NCBI GenBank assembly: GCA_038231275.1
Contig: JBBRLQ010000003.1
Span: forward strand, 172,340-236,339
DNA: 64,000 bases
Source of the DNA: Polyangiales bacterium
GTDB taxonomy: Bacteria; Myxococcota_A; Polyangia; Polyangiales; Polyangiaceae
Direction: 5' to 3'
The position numbers were made by a program, and so were the translations under genes. Shown one piece after another: positions 3,675 to 23,467 of the stretch (positions within the stretch are counted from its first letter, which is position 1; every line of letters starts with the position of its first letter). The notes under the pieces were generated by a model. The model searched no databases. It saw nothing but the letters and a program-made list of their open reading frames with translations, and was not told the DNA's origin.

Positions 3675-4050
3675 GTCTCGTTTGTATCGCGCATTTGGTC
3701 TACTGGGTCATCCCGTGACCGCCGACAAGACCTCCGAGCCGTCGCCCGCGCGGTCGAGGAGGACCTCCCGCACCAGCGGGACCTCCGGAACGAGCGGAGC
3801 CTCCGGCACCAGCGGGACCTCCGGAACGAGCGGAGCCTCCGGAACGAGCGGAACCACCGACGCTGGGGCCGGCGACAGCGGTTCGCCGACGGGCTTCTGC
3901 GACGTGAGCACGGCCATCCAACAAGAGCTCTACACGTTCGAGTACGCGAGCCTGACGAACCCTGTGCCATGCGTAAACAACGGAGCGTGCGCGGCGACGC
4001 AGTGTTGCTACCAGGCGGCGGCGGCACAGACCGCGTGCGTAGCGAAGTGA
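3672..4050 (+). CDS. small (TSG)n-repeat protein with Cys-rich C-terminus carrying a CCY..AAA motif; tentative
   Basis: ORF with GC-biased third positions. C-terminus (CVNNGACAATQCCYQAAAAQTAC) resembles the CCYRGDAAAT motif of the two Cys-rich paralogs at 15609..16746. No recognisable signal peptide from ATG 3672. Lies in the promoter gap of the SBP operon. Confidence 0.3.
3770..3855. repeat. tandem repeat (about 36-bp unit x2 plus partial) encoding (TSG)/(ASG) triplets
   Basis: caccagcgggacctccggaacgagcggagcctccgg repeated directly. Confidence 0.6.
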
Positions 4051-4069
4051 AGCGCCTCCACGCGCCGCT

Positions 4070-5722
4070 CTAGGTTCGCTTGATCGACGGCGGCGGGTAC
4101 TCCGGGGCTTCCGACATGATCTGCCGGTAAGCGAGCTGGTCGTCGTGCATGCGGAGCATGACGCGGTACTTCTGCTCGTAGTAGCTCGCCGCGTCGGGGT
4201 CGGGGCGTACCGTGCGGCCCGCGCGCGCCATCGCGCCCATCGCCGACAGGACGTCCTTGCGATCGCCGGACGCGACCGCACCGAGCATCGCCGCGCCGAG
4301 GAGCACCGCCTCCTGCTCTTCGGGGACGATGATGCGGCACCCCGTCGCGTCGGCGTGCGCCCGCAAGAAAATCGGGTTCTTCGCGTCGCCGCCGCACGCG
4401 ATGAGTGTCGTCGGCGCGTAGCCCTGCGCGCGCATCGCCTCGAGGATGTGGCGCGTGCCGAGCGCGATTCCTTGGATGGTTGCAAGATACACCAATGCTA
4501 GCGCGTCGTCGGTGTCCGACAGCTTGAGGCCGCTCACCATGCCGCGCAGCGTGGCGTCGGCGCGTGGCGAGCGGTTGCCGTGATGATCGGCCAGGACGTG
4601 CAGATCCTTGGTCAGCCCGAAGATCGGGCGACTCTTGGCGAGCGCGTCGAGGCGCTCCTTGAGGAGCGCGTACACGGTCGTCTCCTCGCGTTTCGCTTGC
4701 TCCACCAACGCCGCGCCGCGCGCGCTCGAATGAACGACCTGGTCGATGAGCGCGCCGGTCGCCGATTGCCCGCCCTCGGTGAGCCACAGGTCCGGCACCA
4801 TCGCCGAGAAGTACGGGCCCCACACGCCGGGGATCCACTTCGGCTCGCGCGAGACGGCCATGTGGCACGTCGAGGTCCCGCCGATGAGCGCGATGCGCGT
4901 CTCGAGCTCCGCGGCGTCGGGCGCGCCGATGCCGAGCATGCCAAGGCCGCCCGCGTGCGCGTCGATGATGGAGACGCCGACGGGAATCCCCGCGACGAGA
5001 CCCAGCTCCTTCGCCGCCGCCTCGGTGAGCGTCCCTTGCTTCTCGCCCATCGGCCGCACCGTCGCGCCGATCTTCGCCCAGCCGTCTTCCGCGAGCTCGC
5101 CGAGGCCGATCGACTCGAAGTACGCCGTGTCCCACCGCGCTTCTTTGCCGAGGTAGGTCCACTTGCACACCGTGGTGCAGAGCGAGCGCACGTCCACGCC
5201 CGTCGCGCGATACGCGAGAAAATCCGGCAAATCGAAGAATTTGCCCGCGCGCGCCCACGCCTCGGGGAGCTTCTCTTTCAGCCACGCGAGCTTCGGCGTC
5301 TCCATCTCGGGCGAGATGACGCCGCCGACGTACCGCAGGACGTCGTGCTTTCCGGCGTTGATGCGATCGGCCTGCGCCTGCGCGCGGTGGTCCATCCACA
5401 CGATCACGTTCTGCTCGTCGCTGCCGCTCGGGCTGACGGTGACCGGGCGATCGTCCTTGCCCAGCGCGACGAGGGAGCACGTCGCGTCGAAGCCAATGCC
5501 GCGCACCTCTTGGGGCTTCGCGCGCGCCTGGGCGAGGGCGTCTTTCACCGCGGCGGCGCACGCGGTCCAGATGTCGTCGCTCGACTGCTCGACGAAATCC
5601 TCCTGCAGTTTCCACGTGCGGATCGGGCACACGCCCATTCCGTGCATCTTCCCCGTTTCGTCGAAGAGTCCTGCGCGTGCGCTTCCGGTGCCGACGTCGA
5701 TGCCGAGATAAAGCTTGGTCAC
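4070..5722 (-). CDS. FGGY-family carbohydrate kinase (ribulokinase/pentulose kinase-like)
   Basis: 550 aa. N-terminal [16 protein letters not shown] actin-fold ATPase motif and FGGY C-terminal region (..[24 protein letters not shown]..). Confidence 0.85.
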
Positions 5723-6486: not shown

Positions 6487-9400
6487 GTGCCTCGCTCAAT
6501 GCATCGTCTTCTTCCGCTTGGACTCGTCCCCGCGTTCGTCGTCTCCTTCTTCTTCCTCGTCGCCGCTTGCAGCGGCAACGGCTCGAGCGGAGGGACCGTC
6601 GATGTCCCCGACGGAGGCGACGCCGGAGTCCCGCCCGACGGCGACGTCGACGCGTGCACTGGCGCCTGTCCGGGAGACGACGGCGGAACGAAGCCGCCCG
6701 AGGTCACATGCAAGATCTTGGCGCCGCTCGCCGCGGGCACGTGCGCGGTCACCGCGGGCAGCGCCGCGAAGTTGATCGTCGGCACGATCCTCACTTCGGC
6801 GCAGATCTTCCGCGGCGGCGCGGTGCTCGTCGACGACAAGGGAAGCATCGCGTGCGTCGGCTGCGACTGCGAGGCGAAGGCGCAAGGCGCGACGACGATC
6901 ACGTGCCCCGACGGCGTCGTCTCGGCGGCGCTCCTCAACACGCACGACCACATCACCTTCTCGCAGAACAACCCGTACACCGACACCGGCGAGCGCTACG
7001 AGCACCGCCACGACTGGCGCTCCGGCAAGAACGGACACAAGAAGCTCACGACGCCGGGCGGCGCGTCCGCCGATCAGGTCCGTTGGGCGGAGATCCGCTT
7101 CCTCATGAGCGGCGCGACGTCGACGGTCGGCTCCGGCAGCGTGGCCGGCCTCCTCCGCAACCTCGACAAATCGGCCGACGAGCTCGGGCTGAACCAGAAG
7201 CCCGTCGACTTCGAGACGTTCCCGCTCGGCGACTCGAACTCCACCCAGCTCGCCACCGGCTGCGCGTATCCGTCGATCCGCACGCCCGCGTCGATCGCAG
7301 GAGACGACGCGTTCTTGCCGCACGTCGCCGAGGGCATCAACGCCTTCGCGACGAACGAGTTCACGTGCCTCAGCACGACGACGGGCGGCGCGCAGGATCT
7401 CGTCCAGCCGAAGACGGCGATGATCCACTCCATCGGCCTCACCGCCGCCGACTACGCGGACATCGGTCAGAAGGGCGGCTCGATCATCTGGTCGCCGCGC
7501 TCCAACATCACGCTCTACGGCGACACCGCGGTCGTCACCGAAGCGGCGCGCCTCGGCGTTCGCATCGCGCTCGGCACCGACTGGATCGCCACCGGCTCGA
7601 TGAACATCGCGCGCGAGATCCGCTGCGCCGACGATTTCAACAAGACGTTCCTCGGCGGGTTCTTCTCCGACGTCGACCTGTGGAAGATGGTTACGGTCGA
7701 CGCGGCGCATGCGACGGCGACCGACGACGTGATCGGCGATCTCGCGGTCGGCAAGGTCGGCGACGTCTCGATCTTCGCAGGGAAGACGCACAAAGATCAT
7801 CGCGCGATCCTCGACGCCGCGCCGGCGGATGTCGTGCTCGTCATGCGCGCCGGTAAGGTGCTCTATGGCGACGACGATGTGGTCGTAGGCGCGGCGCCGG
7901 CCGCAGTGTGCGACGCGCTCGATGTGTGCGGCACGCCCAAGAAGATGTGCGTGCAGGACGAGTTCGGGAAGAACCTCGCGGCGGTGAAGGCGGCGGCGGG
8001 AGCCGCGATTTACCCGGCGTTCTTCTGCGGCACGCCGACGAACGAGCCTTCGTGCACGCCCAAGCGACCCACCTCGGTGTCCGGCTCCACCGTGTACACG
8101 GGCGTTCCTTCGGCGACCGACGCCGACGGCGACGGCCTCGCGGACGCCGCCGACAACTGCCCGAAGATCTTCAACCCGATCCGCCCGATGGACAGCGGAA
8201 AACAAGCCGATTTCGACGGCGACGGCACCGGCGACGCGTGCGACGTGTGCCCGCTCGACGCGAACTCGACGACCTGCAAGAAGTTCAACGGCAACGACAC
8301 CGACGGCGACGGCGTCGACAACGCGGCCGACAACTGCCCCACGGTGGCCAACGCCGATCAGGCCGACAAGGACGCGGACGGCAAGGGCGACGCGTGCGAC
8401 GCGTGCCCGGCCATCGCGAACCCCGGCGCGCTGGCGTGCCCCGCCACGATCTACGACATCAAGAAGGGGACCGTCGCGACGGGGACGTCGGTGTCGATCG
8501 CCAACACGATCGTCACCGGCAAGGCTGCGAGCGGCTTCTTCGTTCAAGCGAAGACGGGTGATCCCGGGTACGCAGGCACCGATTACTCCGGCATCTTCGT
8601 GTTCCAGAGCGCGAGCGCCGCGCAGGTAGGTGATCGCGTCACGATCACGAGCGCGACGGTGGCGACGTTCAACGGACAGATCGAGCTGACCGCGCCGGCG
8701 GTGACCGTGGTGACCTCCGCGAGCGAGGCGCCGCCCGACCCGGTGGTGGTGACCGCCGCCGACGTCGTGACGGCCGGACCGAAGGCGACCGCGCTCGAGG
8801 GCGTCGTCGTCCAGGTGAACGGCGCGACGGTGACCGACGTGGCGCCGCCGCCTGGTTCGGGCGACACCGCGCCGACGAACGAGTTCGTGCTCGATGCAGG
8901 CGTGCGCGTGAACGACTTCCTGTTCCTCGCGGCGCCGTTCCCCACCACGGGGACGCTATTTTCTTCGGTCGCCGGCGTCCTCGAGCTCAGAAACGGCAAT
9001 TCCAAGATCGAGCCGCGGAGCGCCGCGGATCTCGTCCTCGGCCCCGCGCAGCTGAGCGCGTTCAACGAGGCGTCGACGTTTGCGCGCGTCGGGCAGACCG
9101 GCGCGCCCACGTTGCCGACGCCGCTCACCGTCTCCCTCACGTCGGCGCCGACCGTCGACATGTTCGTCGCGATCGTGCCAAGCGACGCCGCGAGCCTCAC
9201 CATCGTCGGCGGTGGCGCGACGGTCACCGCCGGCCAGACGAGCGCGACGGTGCTCGTGAACGGCCTCGTGCAAGCGGCGTCGGTAACGTTGACGGCGACG
9301 CTCGGCGCGCAGACGCGGACCGCCACGGTGCGTGTCGTCGGCGCCGCGGAGGTGCCTTCGCTCACGTCGCTGACGCCGCCGAGCCTCGTCGTCGCGCCGG

Positions 9401-10188
9401 GCGGGACCACGACGTTCACCGTCGGTCTCGACCTGCCGGCGCCGGTCGGCGGGGTCACGATCGCCCTCTCCCTCGCGCCCGCGAACGCGGGGACGATCCC
9501 CGCGTCTGTGACGGTGGCCACCGATCAGACGAGCGCCACGTTCTCCTACGCCGACGCGAGCACGGTCACGAGCGCGACGGTAACCGCGACGCTCGGCGCG
9601 GCGACGTTGAACGCGACGATCACGCTGCAAGCGGCGGCGGGTGGCCTCGTCATCAACGAGGTCGACTACGACAACGTCGGCACGGACACCGCCGAGTTCG
9701 TGGAGATCTACAACGCGTCGTCCGCGCCGATCGATCTCACTGGATTTTCGCTGCTGCTCGTCAACGGCGCGAACAACGCGGTCTACCGCACCGTCGACCT
9801 CGGCCCCGCGGGGACGCTCGCCGCCGGTCAGTTCCTCGTCGTCGGCGCCACGAGCGTCGTCGCGGCGAGCGGCGCGCTCAAGATCGATCTCGGCGCCCTC
9901 ACCGACATCGTCCAGAACGGCGCGCCGGACGGCGTGGCCCTCGTCGATACGTCCACGAACAAGCTGGTCGATGCGCTGTCGTACGAAGGCTCCATCATCG
10001 CGGCGGTCATTCCGGGCGTCGGAACGGTGAGCCTCGTCGAAGGCACCGCGCTCGCCGCGACCGTCGCCGACTCGAACACGACGGCCGGCTCGCTCTGTCG
10101 CCTGCCGAACGGCGCGGACACCAACGACGCAAACACCGACTGGAAGCTCTCGTCGGCGGCGACGCCGGGCGCGGCGAACGTCAACTGA
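6487..10188 (+). CDS. large multidomain lipoprotein: metal-dependent amidohydrolase domain + thrombospondin type-3 (Ca-binding) repeats + Ig-like/low-complexity region + C-terminal lamin-tail domain (LTD)
   Basis: Signal peptide plus lipobox ([10 protein letters not shown]). Amidohydrolase HxH motif ([10 protein letters not shown]). TSP3 repeats ([20 protein letters not shown].., [38 protein letters not shown]). LTD-like C-terminus ([45 protein letters not shown]). Confidence 0.8.
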
Positions 10189-10209: not shown

Positions 10210-11763
10210 TCAGCCGAGGATGCGCACCTTGAAGCCGAGCTCCTGCGAGAGCGCGATCATTTCGCCGTAGACGTCTCCGTACGCGACGGCGACGTGGTTC
10301 GAGAGGTAGTGCGCCATGAGCGTCTCTTGCGAGATCCCCATGTCGGCGGCCATGAACGGCCATTCGCGCGTCGTGCCCTCCCACCACTGATCGCGGACGG
10401 CGGGGGGGAGTTTGACGACCTCGCCTTTGCCGACGTCCATCCAGAGCTCGCCCTTTTTGATGTAGGCGCGGGCCCAGGTCATGTTGCCGGGGAGGCTCTC
10501 GCCGGCGAGCGTGCCACCGGGCGTGGGGAAGTAGAGCGACGGTTGCCGGTAGGAGTGCGCGCCCTTCAAGGTCGACGGATCGTGGTTGAACGCGTAGGGG
10601 CCGCACGAGCCGCTGTTCAGGAGGACCCAGAGGAACCGTCCGTCGTGTTTGGCGCCCCAGCGGACGTCGTGGAACATGACGGCCTGGTGGAGCCCCTTCC
10701 TCTTGAGGAGGCGCTTCATCATCTCCATCGGCATCGCGTTGCCCTGATCGGCCTCGGTCGCCGTCGCGACCGTGTCGCCGTTCGACTCGGGGCGGCATGT
10801 GCCGTTGAGCAAGCCCTCGGCCAGATCGCTCGGCGGGCGGAGCGGGATGAGGCCGAGCTGGTATTGCCAGCCGAGGCAGTCGGCCTTGTATTCTGCAAGC
10901 AGGTCTATGACGACCAGGTAGTCACGGAGCTGTTCCTTCGTCGCCGCCTGATCGAAGTCGGCGTTGCCGTTCTCGCCCCAGTGAAATTGGAGGCCCGCCT
11001 TCACGCAGAATTCGAACGCGTCCTGGATGCGCTTGTCGGCGATGCGCTTGCCGCGGTCGATGATCCACGCCTGATCGATCTTGTGCTCGGTGAAGCCGTG
11101 CTTGTTGAGCAGGCGCGGCCCGAAGTACCCGTTGATCATCCCCATCGACGTGTCGCCGAGCATCATGAGGAGGACGCGGCGCTTCTTGATCTCGCCGGCG
11201 ACAGCGGCGGCGTGGGCGACGGCGCTCTCGGAGACGGGCGCGCTGTACCGCACCTGTTCTTCGCCGTAGCGAATCTGTCCGGAGGTGCACCACTCGTCGA
11301 GGCGCGCCATGAAGGTCGCGTCGGTCGTCCAGTCGGCGGCCTCGGTCCACGCGCGAGAGAACGGGCGATCGAGGCTCTCGAGGCACGCGCCGGTGTTGAG
11401 GAGGCCGACGAGGCCCGGCCAGCGTCCGCTGAAGTTGCTCGCGAGGAGCAGCGGGTTGTCCTTTCCGACGACGCCGTCGGTCGTGTGCGGGCCGTAGAAC
11501 CAGTGCACGCACACGCCGATCATCGGATCGTCGATGGGGCCGAGTTTGTCGATTGCCTCGTGGGGCTTCGAGAGGAAGCCGTCGACCTGGTACGGCTCGC
11601 GACCGAGCTTCTTCAGCGCGCGGACCAGCTGGCCTGTCGCTTCGATCATGTTCGGCGTCGCGAGCTCGTTGGGCTTGGCGCGCGCGTCCCCGGGCCAGAA
11701 AACGGCGATCTTCTTTGCCATGATGCGGGAGATGGTAAGCGCGAAGTCGGCCGGCGTCAGCAC
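10210..11763 (-). CDS. L-arabinose/L-fucose isomerase family protein (AraA/FucI-like)
   Basis: 517 aa. Family-like motifs (MLGDTSMGM similar to FGDNMR; C-terminal ..LMAHYLSNHVAVAYGDVYGEMIALSQELGFKV). Last gene of the minus-strand array. Confidence 0.6.
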   Translation of the reverse strand: MLTPADFALTISRIMAKKIAVFWPGDARAKPNELATPNMIEATGQLVRALKKLGREPYQVDGFLSKPHEAIDKLGPIDDPMIGVCVHWFYGPHTTDGVVGKDNPLLLASNFSGRWPGLVGLLNTGACLESLDRPFSRAWTEAADWTTDATFMARLDEWCTSGQIRYGEEQVRYSAPVSESAVAHAAAVAGEIKKRRVLLMMLGDTSMGMINGYFGPRLLNKHGFTEHKIDQAWIIDRGKRIADKRIQDAFEFCVKAGLQFHWGENGNADFDQAATKEQLRDYLVVIDLLAEYKADCLGWQYQLGLIPLRPPSDLAEGLLNGTCRPESNGDTVATATEADQGNAMPMEMMKRLLKRKGLHQAVMFHDVRWGAKHDGRFLWVLLNSGSCGPYAFNHDPSTLKGAHSYRQPSLYFPTPGGTLAGESLPGNMTWARAYIKKGELWMDVGKGEVVKLPPAVRDQWWEGTTREWPFMAADMGISQETLMAHYLSNHVAVAYGDVYGEMIALSQELGFKVRILG

Positions 11764-11778
11764 CGGGCGGAGGCCCGC

Positions 11779-13278
11779 TCAACCGTCTGTCTTGTAGGGG
11801 TTTGGACGCGGCTCGGGGGTCGTGGCCGGCGGCGGCGTCGGGGGCGCGACGGGCGGCGGCGTGGTCGCGGCGGATGGCGGCAGCGGCGGCGGCGTGCCGC
11901 GAGGGGGACGCGTTCGCGGGGGACCCGACGCGTGTGCCGGCGTGCTCGCGCTCGGCTCGGCCGCCGTGGCGGTGGTCGGGGGCACGGCCGCCCCACCGGA
12001 GCTCGCAGGTTCGGCGGCGCTGGCGGCGAGCGGCGGCGGCGCGACGGGCGCCGCGAGCGGCGTGGACGGGACGTCGGTGGTCGCGGGAGCCTCGCGTCTC
12101 TTCATTCGCGGAACGACGACGGCCGCCGCACCGCCCGCGACCACGAGCGCCGCCACGACGGCGATCGCGCCACGCCTGGACCGCGGCGGCGCTTGCCTCG
12201 GCGCGACCTGCTGCGCGGTGACGGGAGCGCCGGTCTTGGACGACGCCTCTTGCGCGTACACGAGCGTGGGCTTCGCGGCGGCCATTCGCGCCGACGGCGA
12301 CGGCGCGGCGAGCGTGGGCATCTCCCCGATCGCCTTTCCGTCGCGAGGCGTGAGGCCCGCCCTGCGCGCGTCGAGCGACTCGCCGAACGAAGACCGCACG
12401 AGCTGCGCCACCTCCCCGTGCGCCGCGAGCCCCACCGGCCGCGCCGCCGCGTAGAGCGCGTCGGCGAGCGCCTCCATCGTGGGGAAGCGATCGTCCGGCG
12501 ACTTGGCGAGCGCGCGCGCGACGATCGCGTCGAACGCGGTGCCGAGCGCCACGCGCTCCGACGAGACGGGCGGCGGCACGTAATAGAGGAGGCGCATGAG
12601 CGCTTCGGCCTCGTTTGCCGCCGCGAAGAGCTGCTTGCTCGCGAGCCCCTCCCAGAGCACGACGCCGAGCGCGAAGACGTCGGCGCGGCGGTCCACGCCC
12701 TTGCCTTGCAGGTACTCGGGCGCCATGTACCCGAGCTTCCCCTTCAGCATGTCGCCGGTGGATGCCATGCCGGTGTGCGCGACGCATTTGGCGATGCCGA
12801 AGTCGCTGACGCGCGAGACCCCGTCGACGCCGACGAGCACGTTCTGAGGAGAGACGTCGCGGTGCACGAGGCCGAGAGGGCGACCTTCGCGATCCTTCGC
12901 CTCGTGAGCGGCGTGCAGACCGCTCGCTGCGTCGAGCACGACGCGCAAGAAAATCGCCGGCGTGGGGCCCGCGTCGCCGACGGCGAGGAGCTCGGCGAGC
13001 GAGACGCCGTCGATGTACTCCATGACCATCGTGACGGACGCGCCGTCGAGCTCGACGTCCCGAACGGCGACCACGTTGGCATGGCGGATGAGCGCCGAGA
13101 CGTACGCTTCTTTGACGAACATGTCGCGGAACGACTTCTGCTCGAGCAAATGCGGATGCGGCCTCTTCAGCGCCACGAGCTGCTCGAAGCCGAGCGCGCC
13201 GCGGACGCGACCCACGTAGACCTGCGCCATCCCTCCCGACGCCAGCTTGCCGACGATCTCGTAGCGGGTCGCGGTCAC
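11779..13278 (-). CDS. Ser/Thr protein kinase (Hanks-type) with Pro/Ala-rich C-terminal tail and a single TM-like segment
   Basis: Kinase subdomains: GxGxxG (GKLASGGMAQVYVG), VALK, HRDVSPQNVL, DFG (SDFGIAK), APE (MAPEY). Probable GTG start at 13276..13278. Confidence 0.85.
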   Translation of the reverse strand: MTATRYEIVGKLASGGMAQVYVGRVRGALGFEQLVALKRPHPHLLEQKSFRDMFVKEAYVSALIRHANVVAVRDVELDGASVTMVMEYIDGVSLAELLAVGDAGPTPAIFLRVVLDAASGLHAAHEAKDREGRPLGLVHRDVSPQNVLVGVDGVSRVSDFGIAKCVAHTGMASTGDMLKGKLGYMAPEYLQGKGVDRRADVFALGVVLWEGLASKQLFAAANEAEALMRLLYYVPPPVSSERVALGTAFDAIVARALAKSPDDRFPTMEALADALYAAARPVGLAAHGEVAQLVRSSFGESLDARRAGLTPRDGKAIGEMPTLAAPSPSARMAAAKPTLVYAQEASSKTGAPVTAQQVAPRQAPPRSRRGAIAVVAALVVAGGAAAVVVPRMKRREAPATTDVPSTPLAAPVAPPPLAASAAEPASSGGAAVPPTTATAAEPSASTPAHASGPPRTRPPRGTPPPLPPSAATTPPPVAPPTPPPATTPEPRPNPYKTDG

Positions 13279-13291
13279 GGGGAGGCGCGCC

Positions 13292-14200
13292 TCACAAGGA
13301 TCCCCGTAGGCCGGCCACGGCACCCCCCGTCGTCGGGGAGAGGACGAACGCGGTCTCACCGGTCTTCCAGCGAACCGCGAACAGCGCGAGCGCGCCGGTG
13401 ACCACGGCGGCGGCGGCGGTGACTCCGAGGAGCACGTTCGTGCGCACCACCGCCGCCCGTCCGTCGTCGACGAGCCCCGCGCACCCGGTGTGCGCGGCCT
13501 GATCGCACCGGTCGGTCACGAAGACGTCGTGCTGCCGGATGGCGTCGGTCCCCGACCAGATCGTGACGCCGCCAACGACCGCGGTCACGCCGAGGCCGAC
13601 CCACACCCACGCAGGCGACAGGCCCCCCTCGGGCGCGCGGGGCGGCGGAGGCTTTGCAGGCTCTGCGGTCGGCAATACGATCTCCTCGAGGGCGCCAGCG
13701 CGGAGCTCGATGGGCCGCTCGATCGCGCGCGCACCGTCGCGAACGACCACGAGGTGCTTGCCCGCCGTGATCCACGAGATCACGTTGGGCGCCACCGCGC
13801 CGCCATCGATCGTCGCGCTGCACGTGCCGCAGGCGACGCGGACGCGGCCCACGCGACCTCCGAACTTCGCGCGGAGCTTGGCCGCGAGATCAACGGCGGC
13901 GCCCTCTCCGTTACGCGCCGCCGCGCGGGCCGTGAGGGTCATGCCGAGCGCGGCGTCGTCGGCGTGCAGCGCCGCCTCGAGCGCGGAGAGGAGCGCGACG
14001 TCGTTGGGCGCGATCTCGTCGGCGCGCGCGAACTCCTGGGCCGCGGTCGCGAAGTCTCCTCGCCGTTGCGCCTCGGCGCCGCGGTCGTACGCGTCGCTCG
14101 CCGCGCGAGAGCGCGCGGTGTCCTCCGCGCGGGCACGTGGAACGGCCGTGAATGCGGCGACGGCAAGCAGCAGACTCACGCACCGCGCGGCTCGGAACAC
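13292..14200 (-). CDS. secreted TPR-like / PEGA-like protein with C-terminal transmembrane segment
   Basis: Signal peptide (LLLAVAAFTAVPRARAED); helical TPR-like N-terminus; PEGA-like stretch (VRVACGTCSATIDGGAVAPNVISWITAGKHLVVV); TM near C-terminus. 13 bp upstream of the kinase gene. Confidence 0.55.
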   Translation of the reverse strand: MFRAARCVSLLLAVAAFTAVPRARAEDTARSRAASDAYDRGAEAQRRGDFATAAQEFARADEIAPNDVALLSALEAALHADDAALGMTLTARAAARNGEGAAVDLAAKLRAKFGGRVGRVRVACGTCSATIDGGAVAPNVISWITAGKHLVVVRDGARAIERPIELRAGALEEIVLPTAEPAKPPPPRAPEGGLSPAWVWVGLGVTAVVGGVTIWSGTDAIRQHDVFVTDRCDQAAHTGCAGLVDDGRAAVVRTNVLLGVTAAAAVVTGALALFAVRWKTGETAFVLSPTTGGAVAGLRGSL

Positions 14201-14219
14201 CGCCGAAGTATACCCCGCG

Positions 14220-15587
14220 TCAGGAGCGGTGTCCGGTCCCGTACTTGGCGAGCATTCGGCCGAGGTGCGTGCGATCGAGCCCGGCGATTCGTGCCGCCGC
14301 CGACTGGTTGCCGTGGGTTTGCGCGAGGAGCGCGCGCAGGTAGACGACGGTGAACCGCTCGATCATCGCATCCTTCAACGTCGCGTACGGCTGCGACATG
14401 TCGAGGAGCTCCGAGAAGACCATGTCGAGCTTGTCCGAGCGACGAGAGAGGACCTCGGGCAGCTCGCCGAGCGCCGCGTACGCGTACACGGCGTTCCGCA
14501 GCTCGCGGACGTTGCCGGGCCAAACGCGCGCGTGCAAGCGGGGCAGGACCTCGGGCGGCAGGCCGGTGAGCCCCGCCTCCTTCGCGAAGCGATTGGCCAA
14601 GACCTCCACGTCCTCGACGCGATCGCGCAGCGCGGGCACGTTGAGGCGGACGATCGCGAGGCGGTAGAAGAGATCCTCACGGTACTGACCGGCGCCGACC
14701 TCCGCGAGGAGATCGCGGTTGGTCGCCGCGACGACGCGCACGCGCACCTTGCGCACCGAGTCGCCGCCGACCGGGCGGATTTCGCCTTCCTCGAGCGCGC
14801 GGAGGAGCATCGGCTGCACGTCGAGCGGGAGCTCGCCGATCTCGTCGAGGAAGAGCGTGCCGCCGTCGGCCGACTCGAACGCGCCGCGCCGCGCCTCCGA
14901 GGCGCCGGTGAACGCCCCTTTTTTGTGGCCGAACAGCTCGCTGGCGATGAGCTCGCGCGAGAACGCGCCGCAGTTGACGGCGACGAACGGCGCCTTCGCG
15001 ACCTTGGAGCGCGCGTGGAGCGCGCGGGCGACCAGCTCCTTGCCGACGCCGGACTCCCCCTCGACCAGGATCGGCACGAGCGACCCTTCGAGCCGAATGA
15101 GCGCGGCGAACAGCCGCTGCATCGCCGGCGAGTGCCCGAGGATGCCCGCGTACTCGGTCACCGGGAACGGGATCTTCGCGTCCAGTCCTTCGGTGTCGGC
15201 GCCGATGAGGACGCTCGGGCGACCGACCGAGATGCGACTTCCCGGCGCCAGCACCATCCCCTCCACGCGCTGGCCGAGGTAGAACGTGCCGTTGCGGCTC
15301 CCCAGATCGCGGACGAGCACGCCTTCGGGCGCGAGCTCGAGCTCGAGGTGGCGGCGCGAGACCGTGGGATCCGCGATGACGATGTCACAGTCCGGCGCCG
15401 ATCCGATGACGCACTTGCCGCTCGTCAGGCGGAACGCCTTGGGCTCCGCCGCGGCGTCCACGCACCGCAGCACCACCCCGAGCGGGCCGTCCATCTTCGC
15501 CGCGCTTCGCGGCATCACGTCGGTCACCGCCACAGCCGCGCCCGGCGGATGGGGCGGCGGCGGCTCGTCGCGAGGCCTTCGGGTCAT
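14220..15587 (-). CDS. sigma-54-dependent transcriptional activator with N-terminal FHA domain (FHA-AAA+-HTH bacterial enhancer-binding protein)
   Basis: FHA core (IGSAPDCDIVIADPTVSRRHLELE..GSRNGTFY). AAA+ Walker A GESGVGKE, GAFTGA, ESELFGH. Sigma-54 contact motif matching consensus GAFTGA. Arg-finger region. C-terminal Fis-type HTH (AARIAGLDRTHLGRMLAKYG). Confidence 0.9.
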   Translation of the reverse strand: MTRRPRDEPPPPHPPGAAVAVTDVMPRSAAKMDGPLGVVLRCVDAAAEPKAFRLTSGKCVIGSAPDCDIVIADPTVSRRHLELELAPEGVLVRDLGSRNGTFYLGQRVEGMVLAPGSRISVGRPSVLIGADTEGLDAKIPFPVTEYAGILGHSPAMQRLFAALIRLEGSLVPILVEGESGVGKELVARALHARSKVAKAPFVAVNCGAFSRELIASELFGHKKGAFTGASEARRGAFESADGGTLFLDEIGELPLDVQPMLLRALEEGEIRPVGGDSVRKVRVRVVAATNRDLLAEVGAGQYREDLFYRLAIVRLNVPALRDRVEDVEVLANRFAKEAGLTGLPPEVLPRLHARVWPGNVRELRNAVYAYAALGELPEVLSRRSDKLDMVFSELLDMSQPYATLKDAMIERFTVVYLRALLAQTHGNQSAAARIAGLDRTHLGRMLAKYGTGHRS

Positions 15588-15608
15588 CTGCCAGAGTCTA
15601 CTTCATCG

Positions 15609-16178
15609 CTACCGGCAGACCGTGAACGGAGTAGGGGCGGAGGTGGTCGTCGCGCAGGTGACGCCGGCGTCGATGGCGGCGCACTCGTCGTAGCTCGCGC
15701 AGAGGATTACGCCGCCCGCGCCGTTGCAATCCTTGGGCGTCTTGCACACGGCGCTCGGCGGCTTGCTCTCGGAGGTCCAGCCCGAGAAACAGCACACCGA
15801 GCCCGCCCCGCAGTTGGCGGCGGACAGGCAGTCGTACACCGAGCACGTGAAAGCTCCGCTGCTGCACTCGAAGGTCGTCGCCGCCGCGTCGCCGCGATAG
15901 CAGCACGTCTTCGGGCTCGCGCACCCAGGGCACGGCGGCTGCGGGCCCGCGTCGATGTCGGCGTCAGTGACCGCGTCGCCGCCGGCATCGCCCGCGTCCG
16001 AACCGCGCGGGCCCGCGTCTCCCTGCGCGTCTACGACCGTCGAGTCGGACGGCGCGTCCGCCGCGGCGTCGGGGCTCGGCCCGAGGTTGAAGTCGACGCC
16101 GCATCCGGCGCACGTCGCAGCGGCGACAATCGCCACGAACGAGGAGACCGGCAAGAGGACCACGTCATTGGCAAACAT
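15609..16178 (-). CDS. secreted cysteine-rich protein, CCY-motif family, paralog 2 (189 aa)
   Basis: Start MFANDVVLLPVSSFVAIVAAATCAGC (signal plus lipobox-like). About 20 Cys; motif TCCYRGDAAATTFEC shared with the adjacent paralog. 14-bp overlap with the upstream paralog. Confidence 0.55.
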   Translation of the reverse strand: MFANDVVLLPVSSFVAIVAAATCAGCGVDFNLGPSPDAAADAPSDSTVVDAQGDAGPRGSDAGDAGGDAVTDADIDAGPQPPCPGCASPKTCCYRGDAAATTFECSSGAFTCSVYDCLSAANCGAGSVCCFSGWTSESKPPSAVCKTPKDCNGAGGVILCASYDECAAIDAGVTCATTTSAPTPFTVCR

Positions 16179-16746
16179 AGAAAGGCTCCCGTGGCTTCGT
16201 GCAGGTGATGAAGCTCGCGGACTTCGGACAGTCCTGGTCGAAGCTCTGGCAGAGGACTTGTCCGGTGACCCCGCCCTCGGTGCCGAGGCACGAGTCGACG
16301 GTCTCGCACGCCGCCAGGAATGCGAAGTTGGGCGAGAGGCTGGGCCGCTTGCAGCACACGCCGGGGTAACACTGGCTCGTGGCCGTGCAGCGGTAGTACT
16401 CGTCGCAGGAGACGGGCGCCGTGCACTCGAACGGCGTGGCGGCCGCGTCGCCGCGGTAGCAGCAGCCGGCGTCGCATGCTCTGCCGATGCAGATGAGGTC
16501 GCTCGCGGCGTCGCGTTCGTCGCCGGGCAGCGGCGCGCCGTCCTCACCGGCGGAGACGTCGGAGCCTGCGTCTGCGTGAGCGTCGGGGCGCGCGTCCGCT
16601 GCGCCGTCCTCGCCGCCATCGACACCGACCGTGTTCGCGTCCGGCGCGGGGTCGAACGACAACATGCACCCGACGCCCACCGTCGCGACCGCCACCATGA
16701 TGGTGACGGCGACGAGCACGCGGCGACGAGGACGAAAGCGCGCCAT
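16165..16746 (-). CDS. secreted cysteine-rich protein, CCY-motif family, paralog 1 (193 aa)
   Basis: Signal peptide plus lipobox (MARFRPRRRVLVAVTIMVAVATVGVGC). Motif GCCYRGDAAATPFEC; about 20 Cys; Asp/Gly-rich linker. Confidence 0.55.
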   Translation of the reverse strand: MARFRPRRRVLVAVTIMVAVATVGVGCMLSFDPAPDANTVGVDGGEDGAADARPDAHADAGSDVSAGEDGAPLPGDERDAASDLICIGRACDAGCCYRGDAAATPFECTAPVSCDEYYRCTATSQCYPGVCCKRPSLSPNFAFLAACETVDSCLGTEGGVTGQVLCQSFDQDCPKSASFITCTKPREPFYVCQ

Positions 16747-16795
16747 TATGGTGAGTCTAGCTCCAGCGGCTGCGCGCGACCTTCGGCATCTCGGT

Positions 16796-18619
16796 TCATT
16801 GGCCGACGAAGCTCCGGTAGAGGATCTTGGCGATCTGGGCGCGCGTGAGGCTCGCGTTCGGCCGGAACGTGCCGTCGCCGTAGCCGTCGATGAGCTGGTG
16901 CGAGTGCGCCGCCTCGACGTACCCGTAGAACGCGTTGTCGCGCGGCACGTCGGTGAACGTCGGCGTCTGCGGATCCTCGGGAGCCCAGCCTTTGCCGAGG
17001 ACGAACATCTTCACGGCTTGCCCGCGCGTCAGCGTGTTCTGCGGCCGGAAGGTGCCGTCCGAATACCCGCCGATGATCCCGTTCGCGGCCAGGGTCTCGA
17101 CGTACTGGAAGCGCGGGTCTCCGGTCGACACGTCCGAGAACGTCGCCCCGCTCGGGCTCGCGAGGGGCAACGTGCCGTAGCGATGACCGGACGCGGCGAT
17201 CGTGCCGTACGTGAGCGCGCGCCCCAGCGCGGTGGCGAGCTCGCCGCGCGTCGGCAGGTGGCCGGCGCCGAAGTTGCCGTCGGGCTGGCCGTCGAGAATT
17301 CCGTCGGCGGCGAGCCCTTCGACGAACGTGTACGCCCAGTCGTTGGGCGGCTCGTCGAGGAACTTCTGGCCACTCCAGAACTCATCGGGCACGCCACGCG
17401 ACGGATCGCCGGTGAGGCCGCGCAGCTTCTGCCAGACGTCGTCCCGCACGGCGCCCCCCGCCAGGCGCGTGCCGAAATGCTTGGGGCCCGGATCGTCGTC
17501 GATCGCGTCGTACCAAAGCGCCGCGTGGACCGACCACGCCCACGGGCTGTCGGTGTGGAACGCCTCGTACGACGCCTGCATCGCCGCGCGCATTTGGTCG
17601 GGCGTGCGCACGCAGTTGTGGAAGACGCCCATGTCGTCGGGGCACGGCTGCGACCAGCCGGTGGGGGGCGATTGCCAGCCGAACTCGGTGACCATCAGCT
17701 CGGTGCGCGTGCCGCTCACCTGCTGGAGGCGGTCACGCACGTGCGCGATGTCGTCCTTGACCCACTGCTTCCAGCCGCCGAAGCAGTCCACGCGATCGGG
17801 GGACGTCGCGTTCACGCAGGCCAGGTCGACCTTCGCGCCGTCGTACGGGTGCACCGCCATGAAGTCGAACGGCATGAACGCGGCGTTCTCGGCGCAGCCG
17901 TACAGGGCCGGCGCGGGCGCGACGCAACGGAACGCGCCCGACGTGAAGAACGGCTCGTACCAGCCTGTCTCGTCGCGCGCGTACGTGTTCGCGGTTCCCG
18001 CGGAGACGACCTTGATGTCGCTCCATCGCCCGCCGGCGAGCAGGTGCTCCTTCACGCGACGCGCGAGCCACGCGGTCATGTTGCCGCCCCATCGGCTGCC
18101 GTTGATTTCGTTGCCGGTCTCGATTGCGTCGGGGTGCGCGGCGTTCGACGCGAAGGCTTCCTGCAGGAGTGGGTCGAGACGGTTCTGCACGTAGTCCTGG
18201 ATGTCGGCGTCGGCGGCCGGGCAGGGGACGTGCTGGCCGGGCGGGCAATCGAGCGGCGCCTGGAGGACGACGACCACCTGGAGACCGTGGGCGTGCGCCT
18301 TCTCCACGAGCTGGCCGAGGAGCGCGTTCGAGAGACCGCCCCAGCCGGCCTCCACGCGAATCCATCCCACGCCGAGCCCCGTCGTGATCTCGCCGAAGAA
18401 CGCGTCGCCGTTCGCGTCGAGGCGGTGCGCGCCGGACTGGTAGATGCCGCCGGTGACGACGCCGAACCGCGTGCCCTCGGCGCCGGAGGCGTGGGCGTCG
18501 AGCGGCGTCGCGCCGACGGCGTTCCCTTCGCCCGGTCCTTGGCCTTCGCAGGCGGCGACGATCGCCAGCGCGACACAGGAGAGGGCTCGACCGAAAAGAC
18601 CACGATTCGGATTCGGCAT
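16796..18619 (-). CDS. secreted glycoside hydrolase (GH5-like/clan GH-A) with three C-terminal S-layer homology (SLH) domains
   Basis: Signal peptide plus lipobox (VALAIVAACEG). Clan-A catalytic motifs (IETGNEINGS; VTEFGWQ). Three SLH-like repeats (..DGYGDGTFRPNASLTRAQIAKILY). Start chosen at internal Met with signal peptide (18619). Confidence 0.75.
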   Translation of the reverse strand: MPNPNRGLFGRALSCVALAIVAACEGQGPGEGNAVGATPLDAHASGAEGTRFGVVTGGIYQSGAHRLDANGDAFFGEITTGLGVGWIRVEAGWGGLSNALLGQLVEKAHAHGLQVVVVLQAPLDCPPGQHVPCPAADADIQDYVQNRLDPLLQEAFASNAAHPDAIETGNEINGSRWGGNMTAWLARRVKEHLLAGGRWSDIKVVSAGTANTYARDETGWYEPFFTSGAFRCVAPAPALYGCAENAAFMPFDFMAVHPYDGAKVDLACVNATSPDRVDCFGGWKQWVKDDIAHVRDRLQQVSGTRTELMVTEFGWQSPPTGWSQPCPDDMGVFHNCVRTPDQMRAAMQASYEAFHTDSPWAWSVHAALWYDAIDDDPGPKHFGTRLAGGAVRDDVWQKLRGLTGDPSRGVPDEFWSGQKFLDEPPNDWAYTFVEGLAADGILDGQPDGNFGAGHLPTRGELATALGRALTYGTIAASGHRYGTLPLASPSGATFSDVSTGDPRFQYVETLAANGIIGGYSDGTFRPQNTLTRGQAVKMFVLGKGWAPEDPQTPTFTDVPRDNAFYGYVEAAHSHQLIDGYGDGTFRPNASLTRAQIAKILYRSFVGQ

Positions 18620-18669
18620 GCGCAGGGGCTCCTTGGAAGGGCGCGCTCGACGTCGCGCGGAGACACCTT

Positions 18670-18686
18670 CAGCAGCCGGCATGCCA
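18670..18686 (-). promoter_or_regulatory. candidate sigma-54 promoter (minus strand reads TGGCATGCCGGCTGCTG) upstream of the SLH-glycosidase gene
   Basis: Matches the TGGCAC-N5-TTGCW architecture, with GG and GC dinucleotides at the canonical spacing. About 40 nt upstream of the 18619 start. Confidence 0.4.
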
Positions 18687-18760
18687 CGACGCGTTCGTGG
18701 GAGAACGCAGCACACTTCAGGTTGCGCCGCGATCCGATTGCGGCATCCACCCCGACGATC

Positions 18761-18778
18761 TGCGGCATCGATGCCGCA
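18761..18778. promoter_or_regulatory. 18-bp perfect palindrome TGCGGCATC|GATGCCGCA, with an upstream half-site copy at 18738..18747; candidate enhancer/UAS between divergent sigma-54-like promoters
   Basis: Exact inverted repeat read from sequence. Lies between the promoter candidates at 18670..18686 and 18821..18836. Confidence 0.4.
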
Positions 18779-18820
18779 GACTCGAAATCGAAATCGTCTC
18801 TATTTTGCCTGAGGATCGCG

Positions 18821-18836
18821 TGGCGCGCGGTGTGCA
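18821..18836 (+). promoter_or_regulatory. candidate sigma-54 promoter TGGCGCGCGGTGTGCA upstream of the 18850 gene
   Basis: GG/GC elements at -24/-12-type spacing. The -12 GC is 14 nt before the ATG, implying a near-leaderless transcript if real. Confidence 0.35.
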
Positions 18837-18849
18837 GAAATGAACCGAA

Positions 18850-19761
18850 ATGCACCACCCCACTCGTCGAACCGCATCGGGTCCTCTGCTCCTCTCCTTC
18901 TTCTCGATCGCATGCGCGACCGGCGCCCCCGCGTGCTCGAGCGACGCCGCCGCGCCCGAGGCGCCGACCGAGCAAGCCCAGGCCTGGGGCACCCCGTGGA
19001 CGATGGACGGCGCGTTCGCCGACGAGCTCCGCGAGGTCACCGGGGACGATCCCGTCGGGCTCACCGCGTTCTGGCGCGGCACGAACGCGAGCGGCCGCTA
19101 CGACGGCGCGTACTTCCAGACGTGGCCCGGCGAGCGCATCCACGTCGGAGCGCTCGTCATCACCGGCTCGGGCAAGGCCGATGCGGGGCAGAACGATCTG
19201 AAGACGTTCCCGTTCCCCGACGGCGCCACCATCATCCCGTGTCTGCAATCGGTCGGCGGCATCCAGAGCGCGTACATGATCCGCACGAGCAACGGGATCG
19301 AAGCGCGCAAGCGCCTCGCGCAGTACGACGTCACCGGCTCGGAGCTCTTCGGGCACAGCGCCGGCGCGTGGGTCGCCGTCGTGATGGGCATCCTCGGTCG
19401 CGCGTCGCGCGTCGACGTGTACGGCGTCCCGTTCTTCTTCCCCATCCACGGCGAGCTCACGTGGGGGAGGACGACCATCGGCTTCCACACGCACGCGCAC
19501 GATCCGGTCGGCTTCGGGTTCGACGTGCCGGCGATGCTCGGTGCGATGGAGTACAACCAGATCCGGTACGGAGACGCGCAGCGCGAGCACGACACCTACC
19601 GCGATCCGGAGCCGGCCCAGACCCCGCTCACGGAAGACGAGTGGACGCGCGTTCGCGAGTACCTGGTCATCCGGCTGGAGATCGCGCTCGGGAAACTCCC
19701 CATCGACACGTGCTGGGGCAAGCCGTGCGTGGCCGATCACATGGGCGGTTCGGGCCTTTGA
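18850..19761 (+). CDS. secreted alpha/beta-hydrolase-like lipoprotein (GxSxG serine motif)
   Basis: Signal peptide plus lipobox (LLLSFFSIACATG). GHSAG nucleophile-elbow-like motif. Downstream His/Asp-rich region. Confidence 0.5.
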   Translation: MHHPTRRTASGPLLLSFFSIACATGAPACSSDAAAPEAPTEQAQAWGTPWTMDGAFADELREVTGDDPVGLTAFWRGTNASGRYDGAYFQTWPGERIHVGALVITGSGKADAGQNDLKTFPFPDGATIIPCLQSVGGIQSAYMIRTSNGIEARKRLAQYDVTGSELFGHSAGAWVAVVMGILGRASRVDVYGVPFFFPIHGELTWGRTTIGFHTHAHDPVGFGFDVPAMLGAMEYNQIRYGDAQREHDTYRDPEPAQTPLTEDEWTRVREYLVIRLEIALGKLPIDTCWGKPCVADHMGGSGL

Positions 19762-19837
19762 ATCGTCCGACGGCACCGCGAGCCGTGCCGCGTGATATCC
19801 AGCGGTGGCGGCGCCGGGTGTACGCGCCGGGTGAGGA

Positions 19838-21370
19838 ATGCCGATGGGGCCTGGTGCGTCGAGGGTTGGAGCAGGCGCGGCCGTCGTGCTCGCGGTGCTC
19901 GCGTCGTTACCCGTCGCGCGGGCGCAGGGAAATTACCGCGCGACGCCGACCGGCGGACGTTCTGCGCTCCTCGGGGACACCGGCATCGCGCTCGCCACCG
20001 ACGGCGCGTCGCCGTTCTTGAACCCCGCCACGATCGTCCGAATCCACGACGCGAGCCTCGCGTTCTCGGTGAGCTTCTTCTCGTTCACGAGCGCCACGTT
20101 CGCGGGGTGGCACCAGCCGGGCCCGGTCGACACCGGGCGCTTCGGTCCGCTCTCCGTCGACGCGTCGCGCGAGTCGACGAGCCGCTTCGACGCGATCCCG
20201 TCCACGCTCTGTCTATTTTTCACGGTCGCCGGCTGGGGCGATCCCAGCGACGCCAGCCTGGCGAAGGAGCCGCGCTTCTGGGCCGCGCCGCGCACCGGCC
20301 GACAGAAGCTCGCCGCGTGCCTCGGGACGACCGAGCAGCAGGAGCTCGATCTCCCCGCGGTGAACCTCCGCACGAGCGCGCCCGGCGGCATTTCGCACGC
20401 CGCGCAGTCGTTCCACCAGACGTTCCGCCGCGTCCACGTCGGCCCCAGCTACGGCATCGACGTGACCGACGCGCTCACGTTCGGCGTCTCGCTGCACGGC
20501 GTGATCACGTCGTACGCGTACCTCTGGTCGTCGAGCGCCATCACCAGCGACGCCTCCGGCGCCCCCGTCGCCACGAGCCTCGACGCGACGGGGAATGGGC
20601 GCTCGATCGATCTCGACGCGATCTTCGGCGCGACGTACCGCGCGGGGCGTCTCACCTTCGGCGCCTCGGCCAAGCCGCCCGCCCTCCATGCCGGCGGGAG
20701 CTACGACGCGAGCCTTCATCAGCAGGCGGGCGCCACCGGCCTCTCGAGCGCGCTGCTCACCACCGCGTCCGGGGATTTTCGTGCGCCGTCGCCCGGTCGC
20801 GTCGGCGTCGGCGTCGGCGCCGACCTCGGTCGCGCGAAGCTCGAGGTCGACGGGACCTACTTTTTTCCGCTCGATCGCGCGATGAGCGCGGATCTCCACG
20901 TCGACACCACCACGATCGCCAACGGCGTGGCGACGCCTTCGTCCAGCGACGCGGTGTACTCGGCGCGCGCGCGCCCGGTCGTCGACGGCGCGGCGGGCGT
21001 CGAATATTTCGTGTCGCCGACGTTGAGTGTCTTGGGCGGCGCGAGCTCCGACATCACGAGCGCGTCGGAGCTGAGCACGGCGTCGTCGGTCGGCGCGTTC
21101 CATCAAGCGCGCGTGAGCCGCGTCGGCGTGTCGGCGGGGCTCGGGTCGTACGGCTCCGGCGGCACGCTCCTCATCGGCGTGCGGCTGTCGACCGGGTGGG
21201 GCCAGGCGCTCGCCGTGAACCCGTACGTCGTTCCCAACGACTACGCCACCGTGGACACGCGCACGTACGGCGCGATGCTCGTCGTCGCGGGCTCCACGAG
21301 CTTCCGCGCCATCCGCGGCGTCGTCGACTCGGTCGGCGAGATCGTGAAGCCGAAGCGTGACGAGCCCTGA
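19838..21370 (+). CDS. secreted hypothetical protein (possible outer-membrane beta-barrel), 510 aa
   Basis: N-terminal signal peptide (AAVVLAVLASLPVARAQG). Alternating hydrophobic/polar Ser/Gly/Ala-rich composition throughout. Chosen over the overlapping alternative frame 19792..21360. Confidence 0.5.
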   Translation: MPMGPGASRVGAGAAVVLAVLASLPVARAQGNYRATPTGGRSALLGDTGIALATDGASPFLNPATIVRIHDASLAFSVSFFSFTSATFAGWHQPGPVDTGRFGPLSVDASRESTSRFDAIPSTLCLFFTVAGWGDPSDASLAKEPRFWAAPRTGRQKLAACLGTTEQQELDLPAVNLRTSAPGGISHAAQSFHQTFRRVHVGPSYGIDVTDALTFGVSLHGVITSYAYLWSSSAITSDASGAPVATSLDATGNGRSIDLDAIFGATYRAGRLTFGASAKPPALHAGGSYDASLHQQAGATGLSSALLTTASGDFRAPSPGRVGVGVGADLGRAKLEVDGTYFFPLDRAMSADLHVDTTTIANGVATPSSSDAVYSARARPVVDGAAGVEYFVSPTLSVLGGASSDITSASELSTASSVGAFHQARVSRVGVSAGLGSYGSGGTLLIGVRLSTGWGQALAVNPYVVPNDYATVDTRTYGAMLVVAGSTSFRAIRGVVDSVGEIVKPKRDEP

Positions 21371-23451: not shown

Positions 23452-23467
23452 CGGCACGGCCGTTGCT
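23452..23467 (+). promoter_or_regulatory. candidate sigma-54 promoter CGGCACGGCCGTTGCT upstream of the (SSG)n lipoprotein gene
   Basis: 15 of 16 matches to TGGCACG-N4-TTGCW. The -12 GC is 14 nt before the ATG at 23480. Confidence 0.45.

Follow-up and report, generated by a model that had tools for sequence, protein, structure and literature searches.

A conserved kinase and FHA-sigma54 activator module in a strain-specific island of a Polyangiaceae-type genome

Myxobacteria encode hundreds of Hanks-type Ser/Thr kinases and dozens of sigma54 activators, and Ser/Thr kinases with fused extracytoplasmic PEGA domains are common in Myxococcota. Jelsbak, Givskov and Kaiser (2005, PNAS 102:3010; cited in PMC11980068 and PMC4320627) reportedly described the FHA-domain enhancer-binding proteins of Myxococcus xanthus and are said to have proposed that these couple to Ser/Thr kinases. 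To our knowledge, the route from a kinase signal to a sigma54 promoter has never been shown biochemically for this class of FHA-domain bacterial enhancer-binding protein (FHA-bEBP). In mycobacteria, pairs of a kinase and an FHA reader, such as PknB/PknG-GarA and PknH-EmbR, are well studied (reference list of PMC6213207). Here we describe an FHA-bEBP locus in a 64,000-nucleotide (nt) stretch of a Polyangiales genome (assembly GCA_038231275.1, contig JBBRLQ010000003.1, positions 172,340 to 236,339), hereafter the window. A reading made earlier from the letters of this DNA (the original prediction) had treated seven co-directional genes around the FHA-bEBP as one unit comprising sensor, kinase, reader and secreted outputs. 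We lean, somewhat beyond even confidence, towards a different explanation: the locus is a ~8.1-kb lineage-specific island in a Polyangiaceae-type (Myxococcota) genome, in which a conserved signalling trio accompanies non-conserved envelope and secreted cargo, and the cargo is driven via a local sigma54 promoter.

A conserved trio within a strain-specific island

The conserved core of the island is a three-gene transmembrane signalling module. Its genes lie on the minus strand and encode the FHA-bEBP (455 amino acids (aa); 14220-15587), a TPR/PEGA-like accessory membrane protein (295-302 aa; 13292-14200, with the annotated start at 14179) and a Hanks-type Ser/Thr kinase (499 aa; 11779-13278). 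The trio was present at all three of the nearest bEBP homologues that were looked up. The order bEBP, 297-aa protein, kinase was found in locus L006 and again in L007 (L numbers denote loci fetched for comparison), the trio is permuted to accessory protein, kinase, bEBP in L008, and the short contig L005 holds the accessory protein and the kinase. For these three genes, the predicted logic of sensor, kinase and reader is therefore supported. The ~300-aa proteins of these loci are homologous to the accessory protein of the window (31-40% identity), with C-x2-C, SPAWFW...WSGIDT and RTN..LG conserved. Weaker matches to the profile of the accessory family adjoin FHA-bEBPs in L010, L013 and L077, and a contig scan with the accessory protein returned a single distant locus.

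Members of the accessory family are ~300 aa long and combine a signal peptide, a TPR part, a beta-sandwich and two transmembrane (TM) segments. In the window protein, the signal peptide is followed by a TPR-like domain of ~5 helices, a 7-strand PEGA-like beta-sandwich in the AlphaFold2 (AF2) model, a linker and a 2-TM hairpin. The TPR-like domain has the fold of helix-turn-helix repeats and resembles the peptide-binding TPR domains of Sec72, FKBP38, Sgt2, HOP and YfgM. Pfam PEGA (PF08308) gave no match to the accessory protein even at E<=10. The family profile, however, aligns the TPR and beta-domain to a Pfam-annotated TPR/PEGA/TonB protein in L004 (independent E-value (i-E) 8e-6), which supports the PEGA-like call made in the original prediction; further repeats of the L004 protein match the profile weakly (i-E 0.13 to 0.69).

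The kinase matches Pfam Pkinase (E 1.7e-29), and its catalytic motifs are intact, with VALK, HRDVSPQN, SDFG and MAPE in the translation. Its single TM segment (~369-393) is followed by a 104-aa outside tail that is rich in Pro, Ala and Thr and ends in NPYKTDG, the C-terminal peptide being ...PEPRPNPYKTDG. Across the fetched loci, a C-terminal NPY[KHGR]xx after an extracytoplasmic Pro-rich tail was found in 5/5 kinases partnered by an accessory protein, compared with 0/17 other complete kinase C-termini. A PEGA-like segment, such as ...PGKHTVLLVNPQLG..., is fused to the outer C-terminus of kinases near bEBP genes in L011, L013, L017 and L066, and such fusions link a PEGA-like ectodomain to a kinase in the manner of a Rosetta stone (fusion/fission). 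At these four loci, the association of PEGA, kinase and bEBP reaches beyond the trio family; the bEBP match spans the FHA region in L011 and L013 only.

The bEBP combines an FHA domain (residues 60-122), an AAA+ domain (149-315) and a C-terminal HTH_8 (416-449). Its AAA+ domain matches the full length of Pfam Sigma54_activat (E 6e-65) and holds GESGVGKE, LFLDEIGE and GAFTGA in the translation, the FHA domain is clear (PF00498, 64.3 bits against a cut-off of 20.7; Yop-YscD_cpl, 68.1 bits), and HTH_8 passes marginally (22.6 bits against a cut-off of 22, E 8.5e-5). Nearest homologues share 64% identity. An alignment of 119 family members showed S77, R78, H80, S97, N99 and G100 of the FHA domain to be invariant. 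A metagenome scan with the bEBP returned mostly generic AAA+ bEBPs at 40-50% identity, about a dozen of which have an FHA domain. A further FHA-bEBP is encoded in L090 (15593-16942, minus strand) with an FGE-sulfatase-domain protein and proteins of 470, 265 and 194 aa that match nothing in Pfam encoded beside it. The visible 17.5 kb holds neither a kinase gene nor a TPR-like one, indicating that not all FHA-bEBPs are kinase-linked. The window itself encodes a second FHA-coupled output (c-di-GMP), an FHA-GGDEF protein (35546-36478, minus strand) that keeps the canonical G-R FHA motif. Its gene adjoins a GATase gene and that of a stand-alone EAL protein (with 37310-38101, plus strand), and the protein resembles DgcB, the FHA-regulated diguanylate cyclase of Bdellovibrio.

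The trio lies in a segment that a close relative does not have. Locus L090 (GCA_025359105.1) encodes an isomerase in the same 90%-identity cluster as that of the window. In blastn, L090 2451-5933 matches window 23386-19878 (83%), and L090 5992-7564 then directly matches window 11762-10192 (88%). As the alignment jumps from 19878 to 11762, window 11763-19877 is an indel of ~8.1 kb. This island holds the genes for the kinase, the TPR/PEGA-like protein, the FHA-bEBP, the Cys-rich proteins CCY2 and CCY1, the SLH protein and a divergent 303-aa protein, that is, six of the seven array genes plus one. The isomerase gene is outside, as homology with L090 restarts 15 nt past the kinase stop, and its upstream neighbour in L090 is the orthologue of window gene 19838-21370. 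Inspection of the island for marks of mobility found neither a tRNA nor a mobility gene, its composition shows no break and flanking direct repeats do not exceed 8 nt; there were no Rfam families in or around it.

The window has a G+C content of ~70%, at which long spurious open reading frames (ORFs) are abundant. A frame plot of third-codon-position G+C (GC3) together with the ORF list picked out seven consecutive minus-strand coding sequences (10210-18619), and an exact-sequence look-up showed that the NCBI gene calls of the source genome give the same proteins (607, 193, 189, 455, 295, 499 and 517 aa from the SLH protein to the isomerase). Intergenic gaps in this direction are 49, -14, 21, 19 (or 40), 13 and 15 (or 57) nt. 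The seven genes and their spacing of -14 to 49 nt were thus as predicted, and the SLH, FHA-bEBP, Hanks kinase and isomerase-family calls were borne out in the Pfam search. The kinase start, GTG at 13278, was taken from a Logan contig of the same organism. Terminator-like hairpins were not found on the minus strand inside the array. Tight co-directional spacing is ordinary operon geometry, so the array is not statistically remarkable by itself.

Variable cargo and candidate sites for local control

The first gene of the array encodes the 607-aa SLH protein (16796-18619, minus strand; ORF list, GC3, Pfam). It is lipoprotein-like and carries three C-terminal SLH repeats (PF00395, E 1.1e-35), which match S-layer SLH domains in the PDB (E 5e-6 to 8e-5). 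The N-terminal ~440 aa may form a clan GH-A (TIM-barrel) hydrolase: Glyco_hydro_cc matches below threshold (E 0.005, 16.9 bits against a cut-off of 21), and the motifs GNEIN, HPY and VTEFGW have the order and spacing expected for clan GH-A, although assigning them to strands needs a fold. Motif series of this type are typical of clan GH-A enzymes, in which an Asn-Glu acid/base comes after strand 4 and a Glu nucleophile after strand 7. The hydrolase domain had no sequence match in the PDB, and a single-sequence AF2 model was unusable (mean predicted confidence, pLDDT, 36.6). The GH5-like label of the original prediction, which goes back to the sub-threshold match and the motifs, is accordingly kept as a lead. 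These three repeats (16796-17290, minus strand) belong to a putative lipoprotein of a diderm myxobacterium, and SLH domains normally require pyruvylated polymers of the cell wall (CsaB) for anchoring.

Two genes for Cys-rich proteins follow on the minus strand, CCY1 (193 aa; 16165-16746; ORF list, GC3, NCBI call) and CCY2 (189 aa; 15609-16178), the start of CCY2 overlapping the CCY1 stop by 14 nt. That the two are paralogs, as had been proposed, was borne out by BLASTP (E 2e-16, 41% identity), with 15 Cys in columns identical in both and a shared CCYRGDAAAT. Both have an N-terminal hydrophobic segment (signal or anchor), an acidic linker, which is rich in D, A and G in CCY1, and a Cys-rich C-terminal domain; CCY1 has 17 Cys and CCY2 18. 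A profile of both, run against 1.84 billion representative proteins, returned only the two themselves, making them orphans, and it had no sequence match in the PDB. The RGD tripeptide lies inside CCYRGDAAAT, the most conserved stretch of both paralogs (15609-16746, minus strand). In L008, a gene divergent from the trio (3995-5020, minus strand) encodes a 341-aa lipoprotein with a signal containing Cys, a long acidic linker of D, S, G and A and a Cys-rich C-terminal domain (22 Cys). This architecture is that of the CCY proteins, to which hhalign showed no homology (probability 0.8%); the protein might be cargo of an analogous sort, or just of a type that is common in Polyangia.

Divergent from the array lies a gene for a putative exported protein of 303 aa (18850-19761, plus strand; GC3, NCBI call). 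Its translation holds a GxSxG-type motif, GHSAG, and searches of Pfam and the PDB gave no match. This gene and the region between it and the SLH gene, both parts of the island, had been overlooked in the original prediction. The SLH and CCY genes were found in none of the 90 fetched loci (L089 and L090 through gene tables and blastn), and no SLH, CCY, 303-aa or isomerase protein was found in the trio loci or in the loci with weaker accessory relatives. The SLH and Cys-rich genes are therefore not outputs conserved together with the trio, and the seven genes do not form one conserved unit.

The SLH gene and the divergent gene for the 303-aa protein are separated by a 230-nt region with several candidate control elements. 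A sigma54-type -24/-12 motif, TGGCATgccggCTGCT (18671-18686, minus strand), has its GG and GC intact; its end is 51 nt upstream of the SLH ATG, with a GGAG ribosome-binding site in between. A second sigma54-like motif, TGGCGCgcggtGTGCA (18821-18836, plus strand), faces the 303-aa gene and ends 13 nt before its ATG; it is doubtful because a near-leaderless mRNA would be implied. Between the two lies a perfect 22-nt palindrome with the arms TCTGCGGCATC and GATGCCGCAGA (18759-18780), a candidate enhancer (upstream activating sequence) for the bEBP. No other perfect palindrome of the 64 kb is as long, and 0.19 with arms of at least 11 nt are expected per window. A third half-site, GATGCCGCA (18739-18747, minus strand), is placed 22 nt from the same-strand half-site of the palindrome. 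The window has four exact copies of this 9-mer, three of them within 18739-18778. Palindrome and half-site together lie 53-94 nt upstream of the -24/-12 element, and an enhancer upstream of such an element is the classical bEBP arrangement. The layout is consistent with local control by the bEBP, and local sigma54 control of the cargo is plausible. Elsewhere in the window, the best sigma54-like match is CGGCACggccgTTGCT (23452-23467, plus strand; one mismatch), which ends 12 nt upstream of the gene for a 500-aa collagen-repeat protein (23480-24982).

We propose a model in which the accessory protein, with its TPR and PEGA-like beta-sandwich in the periplasm and held in the membrane by the 2-TM hairpin, would serve the single-pass kinase in trans as its sensory or regulatory ectodomain, possibly by clamping the conserved C-terminal NPY peptide of the kinase. 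Once activated, the kinase would autophosphorylate, phosphorylate the bEBP, or both. From what is known of FHA domains and bEBPs, docking of the FHA domain on the phospho-site might release AAA+ oligomerisation. The bEBP would then bind the palindrome and the extra half-site (18739-18780) and activate the sigma54-type promoter at 18686-18671, as the positions of the motifs suggest. This promoter would drive the SLH-hydrolase, CCY1 and CCY2 genes and probably, by read-through, those of the bEBP, accessory protein and kinase, giving positive feedback; the divergent 303-aa gene may also be driven, judging again from motif positions. A bolder version, which we put forward only tentatively and consider unlikely, is that the trio, with its TPR/PEGA-like 2-TM protein, an NPY tail on the kinase and an FHA-bEBP that lacks the Arg, makes up a distinct, undescribed three-component signalling family of Polyangia. 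In that family the periplasmic TPR would clamp the NPY peptide and so gate the kinase, much as TPR clamps hold the EEVD peptides of Hsp70 and Hsp90, and the non-canonical FHA domain would couple the kinase to sigma54 transcription of strain-specific envelope proteins that evolve rapidly, orphan Cys-rich ones among them.

Several observations weigh against local control through this pathway. In FHA domains that have been well studied, the Arg of the GR motif contacts the phosphate. Among the residues tabulated for the 119 family sequences, this position is never occupied by Arg (Ser in 84, Ala in 27, Gly in 4), and in the window bEBP it is S63. Phospho-Thr binding may therefore be non-canonical or absent, and the simple phospho-Thr reading of the original prediction is not assured. 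The census of the trio comprises five loci only, and no phosphatase partner was seen. The TGGCATgccggCTGCT motif has two mismatches, and sigma54-like matches occur in the window at chance frequency (13 against 14.2 expected; strict, 8 against 7.0 expected), so that the motif alone is not significant and its position only suggestive. The palindrome could serve a different regulator. Searches for sigma54 sites and palindromes at related loci found no shared elements, as would be expected if DNA-binding specificities differ. The cargo is not conserved with the trio, and a sigma54 promoter as the sole promoter would pose a bootstrapping problem for expression of the bEBP.

Alternatively, the trio might control distant sigma54 promoters, with the SLH, CCY and 303-aa genes adjacent by accident, the palindrome an operator for another factor and the sigma54-like motifs due to chance. 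Myxobacterial bEBPs such as the Nla proteins control dispersed regulons, which, along with the chance frequency of sigma54-like matches and the lack of cargo genes beside the trio elsewhere, favours this alternative; we nevertheless regard it as rather unlikely. Trio and cargo share one indel, and two of the eight strict sigma54-like matches of the 64 kb fall in one 230-nt region, each facing its gene. A rough, post hoc estimate of the chance of finding both correctly oriented motifs there is ~2e-4. Furthermore, the motifs flank the sole perfect palindrome of the window with arms of at least 11 nt, at a spacing of ~75-110 nt that is typical of enhancers. Control of the cargo from within the island is the reading that we prefer.

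The neighbouring isomerase and other window features

The last gene of the array encodes an L-fucose-isomerase-family protein (10210-11763, minus strand; 517 aa in the NCBI call). The GTG at 11763 is created at the island junction, and the conserved ATG at 11721 is the likelier start. The protein passes Fucose_iso_C (PF02952, 56 bits against a cut-off of 29.3, E 4.5e-15), scores far below the NCBIfam FucI equivalogs (24 and 14.7 bits against cut-offs of 775 and 850) and had no sequence relative in a PDB search; its relatives are labelled 'L-fucose isomerase-like' (JGI) or 'fucose isomerase' (NCBI). It is conserved at 78-94% identity across Polyangia, including Polyangium spumosum, Minicystis and metagenome-assembled genomes of Sandaracinaceae. 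Its neighbours differ in all four relatives examined (L001, L003, L004 and L090), and sugar ABC-transporter genes are nearby in three of the four. Together with its position outside the island, this removes the isomerase from the array as originally predicted. It is an unrelated conserved neighbour and not part of the signalling system, although it may be co-transcribed with the island by read-through.

One could still suppose that all seven genes, isomerase included, form one functional operon, in which a sugar set free by the SLH hydrolase is sensed through the kinase pathway and then metabolised by the isomerase. The genes are co-directional, with 15-57 nt and no terminator-like site between the kinase stop and the isomerase start, and a sugar ABC transporter and an FGGY kinase are encoded 4.5-9 kb away in the window (FGGY, 4070-5722; sugar-binding protein, 2655-3674; ABC ATPase, 1207-2658). 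We consider this improbable, as the isomerase lies outside the island that L090 lacks, its upstream neighbour there being the orthologue of window gene 19838-21370, and in L001, L003 and L004 the isomerase adjoins sugar ABC-transporter and FGGY-kinase genes, never the kinase/bEBP trio. Conservation is also unequal along the array, from 78-94% identity for the isomerase to 64% for the nearest bEBP homologue and no homologue for the CCY proteins. A role of the island in defence against phage, as a PD-T4-6 or Stk2 kinase system, was rejected as very improbable. In its favour, many PADLOC models of PD-T4-6 match the kinase domain (best E 5.6e-63), the bEBP matches RtcR-type AAA models and the locus is a strain-variable island. 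Against it, what these models recognise is the generic Hanks kinase and the AAA+ core of the bEBP, none of the remaining island proteins matches a defence model, PD-T4-6 is listed as a single-protein system, the trio to which the kinase belongs is conserved and includes a transcription activator and a periplasmic TPR protein, and no nuclease, other effector-type protein or mobile-element gene was seen.

Downstream of the isomerase, the window encodes a 1233-aa exported amidohydrolase/TSP3/lamin-tail protein (6487-10188, plus strand), in place of which L090 has a gene for 425 aa (7522-8799). Homology with L090 restarts at window 6240, which marks a second variable segment flanking the conserved isomerase. 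Farther from the island, a Hanks kinase of 998 aa (51449-54445, minus strand), which has many TPR repeats and whose N-terminus is zf-HC2 anti-sigma-like, is encoded divergently from a Sigma70_r4_2 (ECF-like) protein (54478-55275, plus strand), possibly as a kinase/anti-sigma hybrid paired with its sigma factor. A MerR-HTH and B12-binding protein (26326-27252, plus strand) has the architecture of CarH/LitR-type light-responsive regulators, and its gene adjoins fasciclin and GTP cyclohydrolase II genes.

Relation to described signalling systems

The original prediction had known of no characterisation of this combination of genes. As a concept, the link between FHA enhancer-binding proteins and Ser/Thr kinases had already been proposed; a trio in which an NPY-tailed kinase goes with a TPR/PEGA-like membrane protein was not found described in the open-access literature. 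The island reveals no new principle of gene regulation. It offers a compact test case, in which input, kinase, reader, candidate enhancer, candidate promoter and cargo lie within 8 kb, and it provides two hooks: the pairing of a periplasmic TPR with an NPY peptide that is conserved at the kinase C-terminus, and the loss of the canonical FHA Arg in all 119 aligned sequences. That a conserved signalling cassette travels with non-conserved secreted genes bears on envelope diversity at the level of strains.

With NtrC, ZraR and AtoC, the window bEBP shares the central AAA+ and HTH output and the predicted activation of a -24/-12 promoter from an upstream enhancer; unlike these, it comes without a receiver domain or histidine kinase, and it scores far below the cut-offs of all NCBIfam equivalogs (NtrC, 299.5 against 558.6). 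The PEGA-fused kinases of L011, L013, L017 and L066 likewise combine a single-pass kinase with an outside PEGA-type beta-sandwich near bEBP genes. In the window, however, the PEGA-like domain is on a separate TPR membrane protein (domain fission), and the kinase ectodomain is an unstructured Pro-rich tail. As in PknB/PknG-GarA and PknH-EmbR, a Hanks kinase is paired with an FHA effector of the kind that docks on phospho-Thr, and EmbR is also a transcription regulator; the output here is a sigma54 AAA+ activator in place of an OmpR/BTAD-type or metabolic regulator.

The FHA enhancer-binding proteins of M. xanthus are the closest in design. Like these, the window bEBP has an N-terminal FHA domain, a GAFTGA-bearing AAA+ domain and a Fis-type HTH, with a nearby Hanks kinase as the presumed input in place of a histidine kinase. 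In contrast, the trio of the window adds a TPR and PEGA-like 2-TM protein, the ectodomain of its kinase is Pro-rich and ends in NPY, the canonical GR Arg is missing from all 119 aligned FHA sequences of the family, and the island itself also holds candidates for a target promoter and enhancer.

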